Assembly: GCA_048882045.1 (NCBI GenBank)
Contig: JBHLRZ010000012.1
Location: 1 to 64,000 of the forward strand
Direction of reading: 5' to 3'
DNA from: Candidatus Thorarchaeota archaeon
GTDB taxonomy: Archaea; Asgardarchaeota; Thorarchaeia; Thorarchaeales; Thorarchaeaceae
Length of the DNA: 64,000 bases
Positions 376 through 29,777 of the stretch are shown one piece after another. Both the position numbers and the translations under genes were made by a program. The notes below the pieces were generated by a model. It did not search any database. It had not been told where the DNA came from and was given only the letters and a program-made list of their open reading frames with translations. Numbering within the stretch: position 1 is the stretch's first letter; each line of letters starts with the position of its first letter.

Positions 376-461
376 AACATATCCCTCATTGCTATTATCT
401 TTGTGAATCACTGTAATGATTCTTATCAAAACGAGATGAGTTTGCTGATTGAGAACTGAAA

Positions 462-484: not shown

Positions 485-546
485 CGGATGATTATTATCC
501 AACTTCCAACATTAGGACTCCGATAGGTTAGGAACAAGGAGTTGTC

Positions 547-2019
547 TTGATGAAACGACGCGGTTTGCTTGTAGCTACGTCTGCTGTTCTCTTGCTTTTG
601 TTGGTTTCCCTCCTGTATCTTGCTTTACTGGGATTCTGGAATGGGACGACTGATTCTTCGCCTGACATAATCATACATAATGGAGAAATCTTGACTATGG
701 AGCAAACTCCGGCACAAATCGAAGCACTAGCCATCAAAGGCGAGTATATTGTCGCTGTAGGCGATGAGAGTGACATCTTAGCACTGGCTGGTCCAAACAC
801 TCAATTCATCGACCTTGAAGGAAAGACGCTTCTTCCGGGTTTTAATGATGCTCACTCTCATCACATAGGTGACCGGAGTTATGTGAACCAATCAACGTCA
901 GACGAAGTGATTGAATCAGTACTTAGCGCTGGTTGGACCAGCATCTCTGAACTATTTGTGAATCAAGATCGATTGGACGAGCTCATAACTCTGAATCAAC
1001 AGGACACTCTTCGCATACGTGTCAATGCATATCTTCCATTGTCATGGCAGTTTGAGAGGTTCGGCAATTGGTATCAAGCCTATCAACCCGGGCAGGAATA
1101 TAGTTCAAAATTGAGGATAGGAGGAGTGAAGATTTTCATGGATAGTTGGTACTATGAACCGCTTCAGTACTTCGATCAGACTGAACTGGATTCATTGGTA
1201 CAACAAGCCCATGATGATGGATTTCAGATTGCTATTCACAGTGTGGTTGACAATTCCACAGACATTGTTCTAAACGCTCTAGAATCCGCCTTGGACGGAG
1301 AATCAAACCAACTGTACCGTCACCGAATAGAGCATCTTGTTATGCTCAGAGATGACCAGATACAGAGATTGGCTGACCTAGGAATTATTGCGTCTATCCA
1401 GCTCACTTGGATCAACTCAGATTGGACCCAGGCAGTGTCATGGCCAGTTTTGCAAAATTATCCGCACCTTGCAGGTCGATGGAGAAACATTCTTGATGCT
1501 GGGATTCCCTCTCAGGGAAGCACTGATTTTCCCTGGCTTTTAGGATCTGTGAATCGATCAGCTATGTATGCAGTTTCGAGTTCTGTCACCAGGGTTGGTG
1601 GACTAGGGCTTACCCCTACAGATTGGATGCTAAATCAGACCATAAGTGTGGAACAGGCTCTGCGGCTTCTAACAATTGACGCAGCATATGGTACGTTTCA
1701 AGAGGATGTTAAGGGGAGCATCAAGGTGGGGAAATTTGCAGACTTAGTAGTTCTTTCTGACAACCCTTTGACGGTTTCAGAAAACACGCTCGCTGACATA
1801 GAGGTATTAATGACGATGGTTGGAGGAGTAGACGAATACACTGCGCCTGGACAGCAGTCTTTCTCTGCTGAGTACATGGTATCCAATAGTCGAACGATAG
1901 AACAATCAGGCCAACCGGTTATGATTGAGATGATGAATGCTCCAAATCATAAGGACAAATGGTGGACCGGGCGAGATTCGAAATCATATTCCTCGCTCTT
2001 CCAGTCTACTTATTACTAG
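547..2019 (+). CDS. Membrane-anchored YtcJ-like metal-dependent amidohydrolase (Amidohydro_3), copy A
   Basis: PGFNDAHSH, GVKIF, IHSV, RIEH, STDFP and GSIKVGKFADLVVLS motifs. N-terminal KRRGLL is followed by a hydrophobic helix. The ORF reads through the repeat at 1960 (WWTGRDS). Confidence 0.9.
   Translation: MMKRRGLLVATSAVLLLLLVSLLYLALLGFWNGTTDSSPDIIIHNGEILTMEQTPAQIEALAIKGEYIVAVGDESDILALAGPNTQFIDLEGKTLLPGFNDAHSHHIGDRSYVNQSTSDEVIESVLSAGWTSISELFVNQDRLDELITLNQQDTLRIRVNAYLPLSWQFERFGNWYQAYQPGQEYSSKLRIGGVKIFMDSWYYEPLQYFDQTELDSLVQQAHDDGFQIAIHSVVDNSTDIVLNALESALDGESNQLYRHRIEHLVMLRDDQIQRLADLGIIASIQLTWINSDWTQAVSWPVLQNYPHLAGRWRNILDAGIPSQGSTDFPWLLGSVNRSAMYAVSSSVTRVGGLGLTPTDWMLNQTISVEQALRLLTIDAAYGTFQEDVKGSIKVGKFADLVVLSDNPLTVSENTLADIEVLMTMVGGVDEYTAPGQQSFSAEYMVSNSRTIEQSGQPVMIEMMNAPNHKDKWWTGRDSKSYSSLFQSTYY
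1960..1982 (-). repeat. Perfect 23-bp copy of the tRNA-Ala 3' end (att-like)
   Basis: TGGTGGACCGGGCGAGATTCGAA, identical to 6674-6696. Confidence 0.95.
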
Positions 2020-2211
2020 AGTTATTGGAATGACTATTATCACAATGACTAGAAGGTAAGAAGACCCATACGGGTTAATAATGAAGGATTGAGCTAACAA
2101 GAGGAATACTACAATACTCAAGAATATGAGACATAATCTCTGGAAATTGACGCTCTCTCGGAGATCCTTAACCTCCCTCGACAGTTCCTCAAGATCAATC
2201 TCTTCACTCAT
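1984..2211 (-). CDS. Small two-TM membrane protein (cassette gene)
   Basis: GGGAGA RBS-like motif, charged N-terminus and two hydrophobic helices. The stop codon lies 1 nt from the repeat. Confidence 0.65.
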   Translation of the reverse strand: MSEEIDLEELSREVKDLRESVNFQRLCLIFLSIVVFLLLAQSFIINPYGSSYLLVIVIIVIPITLVISRLEERGI

Positions 2212-2293
2212 GACGAATCTCCCAAAAGACTACGCTTCGATCTGAGATAAAAACTATCACTATTTTGGAATCTTTGACTCTAACAGAATGAAG

Positions 2294-2316
2294 TGATGGA
2301 CTTGGCAAAAACCGAA
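2294..2316 (-). repeat. Decayed copy of the tRNA-Ala 3' end
   Basis: TGATGGACTTGGCAAAAACCGAA is 16/23 ungapped to the consensus and is intergenic. Confidence 0.65.
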
Positions 2317-2361
2317 ACCTTTCTTCGATTATGTTAATATGTTTCCATTCTAAAATATTGC

Positions 2362-3060
2362 TTGGAGTTTCGGGAATTGTTGTTTAATCAATCTAGAAAG
2401 AGAATCGTGGCAATTGCTACTGTATTTGTTATCGGAGGAATTATCATTGTCGGGTTCTCTATTGCACAAAATCCTCCTACCAGCGATATACCCGAGCCTT
2501 CTTTCCTTTATACAAGTTTGAGTGACCTGTTCAGATATAACAATGACACCCAAGGTGGTGTTGTAACTAACTACCTGGAGTTCCACATTTCATTCGATAA
2601 TTTTCATGATGGGAATGCCTTCCTACGACTACGTACTGCCATAATCACGGTTTGGGTGGCTGATATAACAACTCACCAGCCAAACACCTCTCTGATGCAA
2701 TACGATTCATATAATTCATTGATTTTTTGCAATCCCTTTAGAGACCAGAATGAGATATTCATTAATGATAACAATGCTACTGATGGAGAATGGTGTGCTA
2801 CTGGGACCTGTACAGTATTACTGACAACCAATGAGTTGTTCGAAAATAACGTGATTTTTGTCCACTATGGCTTCATGTTGATTAACAATATTGCAAAAGA
2901 GTTTGGCGGACATCAGTTCCTTGTCAAGGTTCAAGCTGACATCACATACAATGCTTTCTACTATAGTGGACTATTGAATTCTTTTTACCAAGATGCGACT
3001 TTCAATTGGACTTTGGGTGAGGATGATCCTATCTATATGCTGCCCATCAGTCCTACATGA
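2362..3060 (+). CDS. Hypothetical membrane-anchored extracellular protein
   Basis: Single N-terminal TM followed by an Asn-rich, beta-type domain with N-x-S/T sequons. Confidence 0.7.
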   Translation: MEFRELLFNQSRKRIVAIATVFVIGGIIIVGFSIAQNPPTSDIPEPSFLYTSLSDLFRYNNDTQGGVVTNYLEFHISFDNFHDGNAFLRLRTAIITVWVADITTHQPNTSLMQYDSYNSLIFCNPFRDQNEIFINDNNATDGEWCATGTCTVLLTTNELFENNVIFVHYGFMLINNIAKEFGGHQFLVKVQADITYNAFYYSGLLNSFYQDATFNWTLGEDDPIYMLPISPT

Positions 3061-3095
3061 GCCAAATGAAAAGTGACCCGATTAAATTAGCATAG

Positions 3096-3533
3096 GTGTT
3101 TTCACAGGCTTCGAGCAAATGTTTTTCCAGTTTGGAGTTGATAACTTCTCAGAAACTTCTGGAGGTCTGTAAGATAGAGTCATCCCCGATTGATGAAGCA
3201 AAAGAAGATACACGACCTCGTTGTTCGTGGTGTGGCAAGCTGTTCACACCCAGTGTTTTTACTCCAATGGAACCGCTCTTGTACTGCTCCTCTCGATGTG
3301 CCTTTGCAGGTACCTTTTACGAATTGACTTGCATCGCAATCGTCCTGACAGGTAGCTCCATCTACATCCTCAGCGACATGTCAGGAATGAATCTTACAGA
3401 TCCAAAGGCTGGTTTTGTATTACTCCTTTGTTGGGGAGGAGCATTTGTCTTCTGGTTTCTAGCGTTTCTTGGATACAGAGAGAGGGCCACAAGAAAAAAC
3501 GAACAGCAGTATCCGCTCACTGATGAACAATAG
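3096..3533 (+). CDS. Zn-finger (CxxC...YCSxxC) plus two-TM membrane protein; start uncertain
   Basis: CSWCGK...YCSSRC followed by two hydrophobic segments. Confidence 0.6.
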   Translation: MFSQASSKCFSSLELITSQKLLEVCKIESSPIDEAKEDTRPRCSWCGKLFTPSVFTPMEPLLYCSSRCAFAGTFYELTCIAIVLTGSSIYILSDMSGMNLTDPKAGFVLLLCWGGAFVFWFLAFLGYRERATRKNEQQYPLTDEQ

Positions 3534-3593
3534 TATATTCAGATTGATAGTGAATAAGTATACTAGTGTGATTTTGTCGAAATAGACTGCTGA

Positions 3594-4100
3594 TTATTCA
3601 GGGGCTACGATCCTATCTCTGAGGGCTGAAACAAACCTTAGAGAAAGCCCCAGACCCACAAGCGAGAAAAGCAGTCCAGCTGGAGCAGCTAAGTATCGAA
3701 AGGGCGGGTTGATCATTCCAATTACCAATGAATAGATAGATGGTGCAGTTGCAAGTGCATACATAAGGACAGCAGGTCCCATAATGTTGTACGACGCAGA
3801 TCTTCTACCAAAACTCCAATAGATGACATAGATGAGTACAATCTCGAACGGCATTATGAGGATGAGCCCCCATGAAATCATTGGAGCTCCTGCAGGGGTC
3901 GGATCTCCCGATTCTGGTAATATGACACTGATAAACGGAAGCGCTATGGCATAGATAGACATCAGTATTCCCAGAAGTCTGGCATTTCTGAAACTTGAAT
4001 CACTACTTAGCCCTCCTGAGTTCATAACAATCACTCTGAATCTAGATGTCCTTTGGTTTAAGAATTTCCATCCAGATTCAACCGAGTAGCGTTGAGTCAT
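3594..4100 (-). CDS. Hypothetical four-TM membrane protein
   Basis: Four hydrophobic segments; the true start is probably downstream of 4100. Confidence 0.65.
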   Translation of the reverse strand: MTQRYSVESGWKFLNQRTSRFRVIVMNSGGLSSDSSFRNARLLGILMSIYAIALPFISVILPESGDPTPAGAPMISWGLILIMPFEIVLIYVIYWSFGRRSASYNIMGPAVLMYALATAPSIYSLVIGMINPPFRYLAAPAGLLFSLVGLGLSLRFVSALRDRIVAPE

Positions 4101-4113
4101 CTATGAACAGATA

Positions 4114-4135
4114 AGGCGGACCGGCGAGTTTCGAT
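4114..4135 (-). repeat. Decayed copy of the tRNA-Ala 3' end
   Basis: AGGCGGACCGG-CGAGTTTCGAT is 18/23 with a 1-bp deletion and is intergenic. Confidence 0.8.
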
Positions 4136-4181
4136 TTGTTTAAGTCCTACCAACTTACATCTCTCTCGTTGTGGATTTGGG

Positions 4182-4865
4182 ATGCAAATGAAGACATACA
4201 TCCTTCTACCGACTATGAAACGAGGTTGGCTTCCTGAAGAGTTTCAAGATGATGACGTCAGGTCTGCAGGGTTTCTTGTGGAGCATTTCATCGAACATTT
4301 CACAGAGCCTGGTGACACGGTCTTTGATCCGTTCGCAGGATTTGGGACGACGCTCCTTGTTGCTGAGAGAATGGGCAGGATTCCATTCGGTATTGAAGCA
4401 GATGAAAGACGGTATGAGTATACTCGTTCAAAGCTGCAAATGACGGACAACATCCTCCTAGGTGACTCTCGCAAACTGGACACATTCCCTCTCCCTGCTA
4501 TAGACTTTGTATTCACCTCTCCCATCTTCATGGGGTGTGATGAGACCAAGAATCCTCTTTCTGGATTCAAGGAGGACGGCAACTATCAGGTATACCTTGG
4601 CCAGATTCAGGATATATTCCGAAAGTTGAGTGAGTTCCTGAACCCAGAAGCCAGGGTGGTTGTTGAGGTCCAGAACCTAGCTCCAAGAAATGGACGACCA
4701 ATGACCCTCTTGGCTTGGGACATGACGTATGCGATATCCAAAGTTCTCCGATTCGAGAAAGAGATTATCGCATGTTGGCAGGGCGTGGACGAAGAAGACA
4801 CCGGTGAAACTCCAATGCTGTCTGGATATGACCACCACTACTGTCTTGTCTTTGTCAAAGATTGA
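4182..4865 (+). CDS. Small amino-(N4/N6/N2)-type nucleic-acid methyltransferase-like protein
   Basis: Motif I FDPFAGFGTT followed by a motif-IV-like FTSPIF. Confidence 0.75.
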   Translation: MQMKTYILLPTMKRGWLPEEFQDDDVRSAGFLVEHFIEHFTEPGDTVFDPFAGFGTTLLVAERMGRIPFGIEADERRYEYTRSKLQMTDNILLGDSRKLDTFPLPAIDFVFTSPIFMGCDETKNPLSGFKEDGNYQVYLGQIQDIFRKLSEFLNPEARVVVEVQNLAPRNGRPMTLLAWDMTYAISKVLRFEKEIIACWQGVDEEDTGETPMLSGYDHHYCLVFVKD

Positions 4866-4869
4866 GAAA

Positions 4870-4892
4870 TGGTGGACTGGGCGAGATTCGAA
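4870..4892 (-). repeat. Near-perfect copy of the tRNA-Ala 3' end
   Basis: TGGTGGACTGGGCGAGATTCGAA is 22/23 and starts 4 nt after the MTase stop. Confidence 0.95.
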
Positions 4893-4901
4893 TCTAAGTA
4901 A

Positions 4902-5156
4902 TTGTTAAATCAAAGAATAGACTTCTTATTTTGTGTTGGGGGACTCTGCTTGGTAGATGAACGTCAGGACACAAAATTCATTCTTCTCTTGCTAGTGTTA
5001 TATGCACTCTTTTGGATTATTGATTTTGATAGCACGATGAGCCTGTTTAGGTGGGTTCTTAACCTCAGCTTACTTGCTCTCATAATCATTGGATTCCTCT
5101 ATTTTGGTAACAAGTACATCCAACTCACACGAATGTCAGAACAGATTCAAGATTAA
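4902..5156 (+). CDS. Small two-TM membrane protein (cassette gene); likely start TTG at 4950
   Basis: Only ORF filling the 298-bp unit between two repeats; GGGGA precedes 4950. Confidence 0.6.
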   Translation: MLNQRIDFLFCVGGLCLVDERQDTKFILLLLVLYALFWIIDFDSTMSLFRWVLNLSLLALIIIGFLYFGNKYIQLTRMSEQIQD

Positions 5157-5167
5157 TATTTGAAAAA

Positions 5168-5190
5168 TGGTGGACCGGGCGAGATTCGAA
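5168..5190 (-). repeat. Perfect 23-bp copy of the tRNA-Ala 3' end
   Basis: Identical to 6674-6696. Confidence 0.95.
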
Positions 5191-5254
5191 CGGATGATTA
5201 TTATCCAACTTCAAACATTGGAATTCTATTTGGTTAGGGAAAGGAGTCAATCCA

Positions 5255-6892
5255 ATGACACGACGTGGACTGCTTCTAGCTACATCTCTCGTACTTACGA
5301 TCTTACTAGCATCTCTCTTGTATCTTGGTTTACAAGGATTCTGGAACACAACCGAAACTCCTCCCGACATCATCTTTCACAATGGCATAGTCCTTACCAT
5401 GGAAGAGTCACCTTCACAGGTCGAAGCAGTAGCCATCCAGGGTGAGTATTTCGTCGCTGTAGGCGATGAAACTGATGTTCTTGAGTTGGCTGGTTCAAAT
5501 ACTCAACTCATAGACCTTGAAGGACGGACCCTGGTACCTGGATTTATCGACTCCCATTGTCATTGGTTTCAAGATCTATCATCAATAGTGAACATATCAT
5601 CAACAGAAGAAGCAATTGAAACCATTCTAAGATCTGGATGGACGAGTGTCTCAGAACTGTATGCGTATCCAGAGCGTTTGGATTTGCTGAGAAGTCTAGA
5701 TAATCAAGGCAGCTTGCGTGTTCGTGTCAATGCCTATCTTCCATTAAACTGGCAGTTTGATAGATTTGGAGACTGGTATCAAGCCTACCAACCTGGACAA
5801 GAATTCAGTTCGAAGTTGAGGATTGGTGGTGTGAAGATATTCAATGAGGGAACTTTCTTGCATTATGATCATTTCTTCAGTCAGACTGAACTGAATTCAC
5901 TAGTACAAGAAGCCCATGACGCAGGGTTCCAGATAGCCACTCACAGCATAATCCACAATGGCACAGATATCGTCCTTAATGCCTATGAATCAGTCTTGGA
6001 TGGGGAATCGAACGAAGACTATCGACACCGTATCGAACACCTTGTCCTGTTGAGGGACGACCAAATTCAGCGAATGAGTGACCTTGGGATTATTGCCTCC
6101 TTCCAGCTCACTTGGCATAATTCAGATTACTTAGCAGCAACAGGTGAAGACCAGGTATTTGCAGACCTGCACAGTGGCGGACAACCTGTTGCTAGATGGC
6201 GAAACATCCTACAGGCTGGAATACCCTCCATTGGAGGTACTGACTTTCCTTCGTTCTTTTTCTCTAACAGTTCAGTAATGTTGACGATTTCTAAGGCGGT
6301 CACTAGGATAGGTGAGCTAGGCATCACACCTACAGATCAGATGTTGAATCAGACCATTAGTGTAGAGCAAGCACTCCGGCTCCTAACTATCGATGCGGCT
6401 TATGGCACGTTTCAAGAGGACATCAAGGGCAGCATTAAGGTGGGGAAGTTTGCAGACCTAGTGATCCTTTCAGACAATCCACTTACAGTTCCGGAAGACA
6501 CACTTGCTGACATCGAGGTACTGATGACGATGGTTGGAGGAGTAATGGAATACATAGCTTCGGGACAACAGATTCTATCTACAGATTACGTAGGAGTCAG
6601 CATTCAAAATATGGAATACTCAAGTCAACCAATCATAATGGAGCTGATTGATACTCCGAATCAGAAAGAAGAGTGGTGGACCGGGCGAGATTCGAATTCG
6701 CGCTCCGCGTCTGAGATTTACGCGGGGTCTCGCGACCTCCTCCAATTTGGTAAGTACGCTATTGCGCAACTTTTGCCAAGGAGGCGATCTCTGCCGACGC
6801 CATCGGTAATCGAGGACGTAACCGGGCTGATCTACCGGCCCACGTGCTGGTTCGGAGTTCTTGATAGAATGGTTAAAAGAATTGTGGAGTGA
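5255..6892 (+). CDS. Membrane-anchored YtcJ-like amidohydrolase, copy B; the C-terminal ~70 codons run antisense through tRNA-Ala
   Basis: PGFIDSHCH, GVKIF, THS, RIEH and GTDFP motifs; AAGGAG RBS; collinear with copy A up to WWTGRDS. Confidence 0.9.
   Translation: MTRRGLLLATSLVLTILLASLLYLGLQGFWNTTETPPDIIFHNGIVLTMEESPSQVEAVAIQGEYFVAVGDETDVLELAGSNTQLIDLEGRTLVPGFIDSHCHWFQDLSSIVNISSTEEAIETILRSGWTSVSELYAYPERLDLLRSLDNQGSLRVRVNAYLPLNWQFDRFGDWYQAYQPGQEFSSKLRIGGVKIFNEGTFLHYDHFFSQTELNSLVQEAHDAGFQIATHSIIHNGTDIVLNAYESVLDGESNEDYRHRIEHLVLLRDDQIQRMSDLGIIASFQLTWHNSDYLAATGEDQVFADLHSGGQPVARWRNILQAGIPSIGGTDFPSFFFSNSSVMLTISKAVTRIGELGITPTDQMLNQTISVEQALRLLTIDAAYGTFQEDIKGSIKVGKFADLVILSDNPLTVPEDTLADIEVLMTMVGGVMEYIASGQQILSTDYVGVSIQNMEYSSQPIIMELIDTPNQKEEWWTGRDSNSRSASEIYAGSRDLLQFGKYAIAQLLPRRRSLPTPSVIEDVTGLIYRPTCWFGVLDRMVKRIVE
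6674..6841 (-). tRNA. tRNA-Ala(GGC) with three introns (D-loop, 37/38, 53/54); CCA encoded
   Basis: Spliced model: GGGCCGG TA GATC AGCCCGGTTA GATC G CCTCC TTGGCAT GGAGG AGGTC GCGAG TTCGAAT CTCGC CCGGTCC ACCA. It has G3:U70 and A73. Introns are at about 6790-6818, 6745-6773 and 6697-6728. Confidence 0.9.
6871..6878 (-). promoter_or_regulatory. Putative TATA box of tRNA-Ala
   Basis: TTTTAACC on the minus strand about 30 nt upstream of the tRNA 5' end. Confidence 0.5.
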
Positions 6893-29754: not shown

Positions 29755-29777
29755 TGGTGGGCTGGACGAGATTTGAA
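29755..29777 (-). repeat. Inverted 22/23 copy of the tRNA-Val 3' end (positions 54-76)
   Basis: Minus strand TTCAAATCTCGTCCAGCCCACCA vs TTCAAATCTCGTCCGGCCCACCA at 30120-30142. Confidence 0.92.

Follow-up and report, generated by a model that had tools for sequence, protein, structure and literature searches.

The window, a stretch of 64,000 nt from a Candidatus Thorarchaeota contig (JBHLRZ010000012.1, positions 1 to 64,000), holds near its start two copies of an amidohydrolase gene, a DNA methylase gene and several short open reading frames (ORFs), set between copies of a 23-nt repeat, here called the core. At the far end of this stack lies an interrupted tRNA-Ala gene, from which the core derives. 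The features are listed below in order of position; numbers preceded by L denote loci of related Thorarchaeota.

about 417-441, plus strand: heavily decayed core, the "long-form" left boundary of cassette A; aligns with the intact cores of L004, L051, L052 and L026
462-484, plus strand: pseudo-core, an old decayed core directly before the CGGATGA of copy A; this block is kept in all long-form alleles
485-505, plus strand: upstream block of amidohydrolase copy A (CGGATGATTATTA...), likely BRE/TATA; the most conserved upstream block among 18 alleles
550-2019 (start 547/550), plus strand: amidohydrolase copy A (YtcJ-like, Amidohydro_3; PF07969, 1.5e-47)
1960-1982, plus strand: core R1, identical to the tRNA-Ala 3′ exon in antisense
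1983-4112, no single strand: cassette region B, with ORFs at 2362-3060 (plus), 3096-3533 (plus) and 3594-4100 (minus)
2290-2317, within cassette region B: core-like remnant, 63% like the repeat (family D5)
4113-4135, plus strand: decayed core with one base deleted, bounding the methylase cassette on the left; from this core onward the sequence is homologous to L052, beginning within a core of that locus (1310-1332)
4182-4865, plus strand: N6/N4 DNA methylase gene (PF01555, 8e-14), with its own TGA 4 nt before core R2
4870-4892, plus strand: core R2, one mismatch
4902-5156, plus strand: cassette C, whose ORF of 84 aa ends at its own stop, 11 nt short of core R3, and has no Pfam match
5168-5190, plus strand: core R3, exact, bounding cassette D on the left; the homology shared with L001, L045 and L016 begins at this core
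5191-5211, plus strand: upstream block of amidohydrolase copy D, likely BRE/TATA; includes the TGA (5195-5197) at which the ORF would end in a ring
5255-6892, plus strand: amidohydrolase copy D (PF07969, 1.4e-49)
6674-6696, plus strand: core R4, the genuine tRNA 3′ exon (T-loop to CCA) seen antisense
6841-6674, minus strand: tRNA-Ala(GGC) gene, 168 nt with three inserts, called by ARAGORN after removal of the inserts

Three of the cores (R1, R3 and R4) are exact and all four copies lie on the plus strand; the number of matches expected in shuffled sequence is zero. As R4 is the T-loop-to-CCA end of the tRNA-Ala gene, the repeat represents a tRNA 3′ exon in antisense. The uncut gene is detected by neither ARAGORN nor Rfam, and with these two no tRNA was found in the window or in ten related loci, because these genes are interrupted; at the gathering threshold Rfam gave no match in the window. 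Once the inserts in the D-loop (~26-31 nt), the anticodon loop (an intron of 29 nt) and the T-arm (32 nt) are removed, ARAGORN calls a full-length tRNA-Ala(ggc). The gene begins with GGGCCGG, which pairs with its 3′ end, has the acceptor stem pair G3:U70 and is preceded by TTTTAACC 30-37 nt upstream of its 5′ end. The inner edge of the 23-nt repeat coincides exactly with the T-arm insert. Some relatives have a tRNA gene without this insert (L046/L047 and L008), and their repeated stretch is at least 16 nt longer.

Displaced 3′ parts of other tRNA genes also occur in this genome, some of them kilobases from the gene (contig C49 at 806, 9765, 16525 and 16919; contig C2 at 94364 and 94961; window at 29755 and 30120), so that tRNA-fragment repeats are a genome-wide habit. 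We considered whether the spare 3′ exons might be halves of working split tRNAs and rejected this, as the copies do not differ from the 3′ exon of the gene itself, sit at cassette boundaries and decay with distance. No matching 5′ halves were seen, which also counts against the split-tRNA reading.

A purine-rich stretch precedes nearly every core copy (in the window at 1948-1959, 4858-4869, 5156-5167 and 6662-6673, and also in L001-L008). It is the antisense of the pyrimidine-rich trailer found after tRNA genes, and in antisense reading follows every tRNA gene of the genome. The duplicated unit is thus longer than 23 nt and encodes the QKEK or QKEE of the amidohydrolase, so that the final QKEE/QKEK codons together with WWTGRDS are att-type DNA. 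The core itself is open in all three frames on the plus strand.

Several core copies have decayed. The first-pass annotation, made from the letters of the window, had described an upstream repeat before both amidohydrolase copies. This is correct for copy D, where 5168-5190 is exact, but the corresponding sequence before copy A (462-484) gives no match to the core at up to five mismatches in a scan of the window. With 12 of 23 positions shared with the core, and transitions making up 10 of the 11 differences (repeat family D7), 462-484 is an old, decayed core copy. Alignment of upstream regions places a copy older still at ~417-441, likewise missed at up to five mismatches. The IDTPNQKE segment before the core was tried as a further decayed copy and set aside as too weak, since it matches at 10 of 23 positions and, by eye, has no clear transition bias.

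Both amidohydrolase copies belong to the Amidohydro_3 family, with scores of 163.6 and 170.3 bits against PF07969 (cut-off 29.7), and both have an N-terminal membrane or signal helix followed by a full-length match to the YtcJ-like domain. The two copies are ~73% identical in DNA. As first annotated, both ORFs run without a stop into the downstream repeat, which they read in one shared frame as WWTGRDS. Copy A passes through core R1 and stops 12 codons past it; copy D passes core R4 and continues into a 65-codon tail antisense over the whole tRNA gene. Between the catalytic domain and the core lies an extension of ~45 residues, in which the identities at the three codon positions are 0.72/0.71/0.57 compared with 0.81/0.885/0.53 in the body of the gene. 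Judged by this codon pattern, the extension is probably translated and weakly constrained. More distant YtcJ-like homologues end in a C-terminal membrane anchor with its own stop, and the cassette clade differs from them in having instead this extension into att DNA.

Three further observations concern individual alleles and the protein model. The homologue at L058:3874-5449 has a C-terminal membrane anchor and its own stop together with a cassette-type upstream region that includes a decayed core; the downstream core is absent within the contig, and L058 may be an intermediate or recombinant form. In L016 (reverse strand) the position of the amidohydrolase start codon reads ACG, not ATG, and this amidohydrolase may be inactive or start elsewhere. 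An AlphaFold model built from a 24-sequence alignment was poor (mean pLDDT 50.5) and uninformative on the tail.

The cassettes between the two amidohydrolase copies have counterparts elsewhere. The ORFs of region B have no Pfam match. Two stretches of this region, 2866-3045 and 3717-3991, each correspond to a different core-bounded cassette in L052, L051 and L050. L052 has the methylase unit (4113-4892) from core to core (82%), and in L054 and L055 the unit ends at a core (86%); in all three of these loci it directly precedes the amidohydrolase unit. Over 485-6696 the order in the window is amidohydrolase A, X (2362-3060), Y (3594-4100), methylase, C and amidohydrolase D, mirroring the order methylase, amidohydrolase, X, Y of L052. 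The two amidohydrolase copies are ~4.7 kb apart, and a larger composite unit may be present twice in the stack, in diverged form. Next to the tRNA lie genes for a PEMT-like methyltransferase, HTH regulators and an ABC ATPase.

Comparison with relatives delimits the amidohydrolase unit. Homology between the copy D region and L001, its closest relative with 89% protein identity, is confined to 5164-6646 (91.5%), that to L045 to 5165-6696 (81%) and that to L016 to 5166-6722, and in each case the flanks are unrelated. The proposal that an att-type boundary lies inside the last codons of the cargo gene is borne out by this homology, which runs exactly from core to core. L051 and L052 have three core-bounded blocks in common (91-97% identity) with different cassettes between them, and strains with 97-99.9% identity in the cassettes they share differ from one another by entire core-bounded units. 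Arrays with the same core, in one orientation and with a spacing of 0.3-3 kb, are present in many relatives; cassette order and content vary among genomes, and the same units recur core to core across different genera. The gene itself is patchily distributed, being found in 21 of 87 genomes of the order and in 6 of 27 other genomes of the genus. By sequence comparison, then, the repeat-to-repeat unit is a discrete and real module. A simple tandem duplication of gene plus repeat was rejected as an explanation, since the unit is found in relatives, from core to core, with unrelated surroundings. We also observed that related contigs (L001, L005, L002, L025 and others) often end ~200 nt or less from the amidohydrolase or the core and that cassette A lies 460 nt from the start of the window's own contig; it appears that assemblies break at the arrays.

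The array yielded no member of the recombinase families, and the genome, which is 93% complete, has no match to PF00589 or PF16795 (tyrosine and SSV-type recombinases), PF00239 (serine recombinases) or Cas1 (PF01867). Given the absence of PF00589 from this 93%-complete genome, there is no recognisable XerA-type recombinase in it either. Two related genomes have one tyrosine recombinase each, located far from the array in the one that is a complete chromosome. No relative of the amidohydrolase and no copy of the core was found in IMG/VR. Exact cores beside diverged cargo, together with unit-wise differences between near-identical strains, argue for ongoing exchange at the cores.

The sequence downstream of the core differs between alleles. 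L046 and L047 are 99.9% identical until 16 nt beyond the core and then diverge: the tRNA follows in one and a different cassette in the other, with tails of 21 and 9 residues. Neighbor-dependent C-termini thus exist in nature, and the predicted C-terminus of the amidohydrolase depends on the neighboring DNA, as the first-pass annotation had suggested.

The central claim of that annotation was that the stop codon of the cargo gene is supplied only by circularizing the cassette. The observations behind it stand: CGGATGA is present at 5191-5197 and at 485-491, and joining 6696 to 5191 gives ...WWTGRDSNG followed by a stop. To its forecast that tails past WWTGRDS would vary among homologues and CGGATGA would be conserved, the alleles conform. 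We compared 23 distinct junction states in related Thorarchaeota, at loci from genome and metagenome contigs, and as a feature of the cassette the ring-supplied stop is not supported by this comparison, as homologues stop before or inside the core or use other frames. The ORF enters the core in three frames, reading WWTGRDS (frame a), MVDRARFE (frame b) or GGPGEIRTR (frame c). Stops fall just before the core in L053, at the first core codon in L054 and L055 and inside the core in L052, L056 and L084; in the remaining alleles they lie 1 to ~85 codons past it. Among alleles with an upstream core, the predicted ring junction leads to a stop within two codons only in copy D of the window (WIN_D), L016, L045 and L083, which are related alleles with the "short" upstream form and frame a. 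The predicted ring stop comes after 3-17 codons in L004, L019, L026 and L050, and in L022 there is none within more than 40 codons. In L001, which uses frame b, the integrated ORF stops one codon past the core and the predicted ring is open for more than 40 codons. Both kinds of homologous cassette that speak against the claim therefore occur, those without the in-frame TGA (including L001) and those stopping before the repeat (L053).

A stop within three codons past the core in this frame is expected by chance at 9% of genome positions and 12% of A+T-rich ones, so that the early stop is not in itself significant. The first-pass annotation had cautioned that such a stop can arise by chance and that copies A and D, being homologous, are not independent evidence, and both cautions were justified. 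The exact junction pattern, the core joined to CGGATGATTA, had no matches in metagenome contigs, where the L045 allele differs inside the pattern.

The TGA lies in a block with other conspicuous properties. When 18 upstream regions are aligned, conservation is highest in a 21-nt block (AACGGATGATTATTA, next A or T, and finally CCAAC). The block sits 50-60 nt upstream of the ATG, with a conserved ribosome-binding stretch, AAGG.G, after it, and is equally conserved whether it abuts the core (short form) or lies 42 nt from the working core (long form). TATA-like hexamers in this genome peak at -60 to -41 before start codons led by a Shine-Dalgarno (SD) sequence. TTATTA, for example, occurs 14 times in the two bins spanning -60 to -41 before SD-led ATGs and 13 times in the twelve bins spanning -220 to -101, and the TTATTA of the block (5198-5203 in copy D) starts at -57. 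The simplest reading, based on position and conservation, is that the TGA of CGGATGA belongs to a BRE/TATA promoter element. The stop seen only in the ring is most likely a coincidence, a by-product of this promoter block.

We consider it probable that the locus is a stack of modules behind a tRNA gene, that the amidohydrolase is a read-through ORF and that the TGA is a by-product of the promoter block and not a selected stop. Small gene modules are stacked behind the intron-rich tRNA-Ala(GGC) gene, each ending in a copy of the 23-nt 3′ exon of the tRNA with the purine-rich trailer antisense. The amidohydrolase module extends from core to core, with its own putative promoter directly after the left core and an ORF lacking its own stop before the right core. 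As the core is open in three frames, translation would halt at the first stop in whatever adjoining DNA comes next. The last ~11 codons (QKEE-WWTGRDS) are thus att-type DNA and the further tail is set by the neighbor, an arrangement that is presumably tolerated. A ring would end in NG and a stop only because the promoter block (CGGATGATTATTA...) happens to hold a TGA in the frame of this sub-lineage. The modules would move by recombination at the cores, through either an enzyme or homologous recombination. Two points count against the TGA being a by-product. All four short-form frame-a alleles keep it in frame, L083 despite a change of GGA to GTA, and selection for a stop would also give this pattern, though these alleles share ancestry. 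In addition, the decayed pseudo-core at 462-484 indicates that a core followed by CGGATGA is the ancestral left end of the whole cassette family, so that an ancestral ring in frame a would have ended in NG and a stop.

The idea that the TGA is a working stop and that a properly ended enzyme is made only in the excised ring can draw on the conservation of CGGATGA and on the predicted junctions, which end NG-stop for WIN_D, L016 and L045 and NV-stop for L083. We nevertheless regard this as extremely improbable. The closest relative, L001 (89% protein identity), uses another frame, in which the integrated ORF ends one codon past the core and the ring offers no stop. Elsewhere the ORF ends ahead of the core or within it, long-form alleles have the TGA 42 nt from the working core and chance alone gives such a stop in 9-12% of cases. 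A non-replicating ring of 1.5 kb would, moreover, probably be too short-lived for selection on its protein. The TGA could instead be a historical footprint, the native stop of a gene that once resided on a free circular replicon with att in its last codons and that is now vestigial. This is unlikely: no free element was found, with both amidohydrolase and core absent from IMG/VR, and frame b alleles are as widespread as frame a alleles, although the ancestral left end, the 10 of 11 transitions in the pseudo-core and the lack, in most alleles, of an ORF stop ahead of the core would be expected of such a history. The distant homologues and L058, with its cassette-type upstream region, have a membrane anchor with its own stop, which points to a replaced C-terminus. 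That the repeats are relics of ancient integrations, inherited vertically with no present mobility and no rings today, would accord with the lack of tyrosine and serine recombinases and Cas1 in the 93%-complete genome and with the decay of several cores. It appears decidedly unlikely given that R1, R3 and R4 are exact while the amidohydrolase copies are only ~73% identical, that entire core-bounded units distinguish strains whose shared cassettes are 97-99.9% identical and that cassette order and content differ among genomes. At the opposite extreme, the cassettes might live partly as expressed rings, with ...WWTGRDSNG as the native enzyme, in an integrase-less system of tRNA-exon exchange in Thorarchaeota. 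We give this very little credence; if true, the protein would switch between a clean and a neighbor-dependent C-terminus with the state of the module.

The stack of modules behind a tRNA gene resembles several known systems in part. In SSV-type ("suicidal") archaeal integrases attP lies inside the int ORF (PMC7253208; review PMC8371274). The present case is similar in having a tRNA-derived att core inside an ORF and a predicted protein that differs between ring and integrated form. Here, however, the ORF encodes a passenger amidohydrolase in place of the integrase, the gene stays in one piece and the change is limited to residues past the core; an integrase is absent from the module and none was detected in the genome with PF16795 and PF00589. 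Archaeal integrons, enriched in Asgard archaea, and integrase-less arrays are also known (PMC9668308). Like integron cassettes, the modules are one-gene units in one orientation with a recombination site at the 3′ end of the gene, and they are shuffled as units. The ORFs of integron cassettes often run into attC. In contrast to integrons, the site here is a 23-nt copy of a tRNA 3′ exon and probably not an attC hairpin, the platform is a tRNA gene and not attI, IntI was not found (no PF00589 in the genome) and the cassette seems to carry its own promoter.

Tycheposons of Prochlorococcus are tRNA-anchored islands built by successive integrations (bioRxiv 10.1101/2020.12.28.424599), and Islander-type tRNA islands are a further parallel (PMC4383910). 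As in these, an intact tRNA gene stands at one end (6841-6674) with displaced fragments at 5168, 4870 and 1960 and decayed copies besides, newer units pushing older ones outward while the remnants decay. The units differ from tycheposons and Islander-type islands in being only 0.3-3 kb long and mostly of one gene, in having no integrase or replication genes and in recurring across genera. The defining enzymes of the SSV-type, integron and tycheposon systems are absent here, and a literature search found no paper describing such a tRNA-fragment-bounded array.

The amidohydrolase cassette shows clearly that, in nature, a recombination site can lie within a cargo gene's last codons, with the same enzyme bearing different tails. 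In annotation such ORFs will be given arbitrary lengths, as with the 65 codons that copy D gains in antisense to the tRNA gene. For the tRNA-fragment-bounded cassette arrays of Thorarchaeota, the amidohydrolase and methylase modules provide clean, dated markers.
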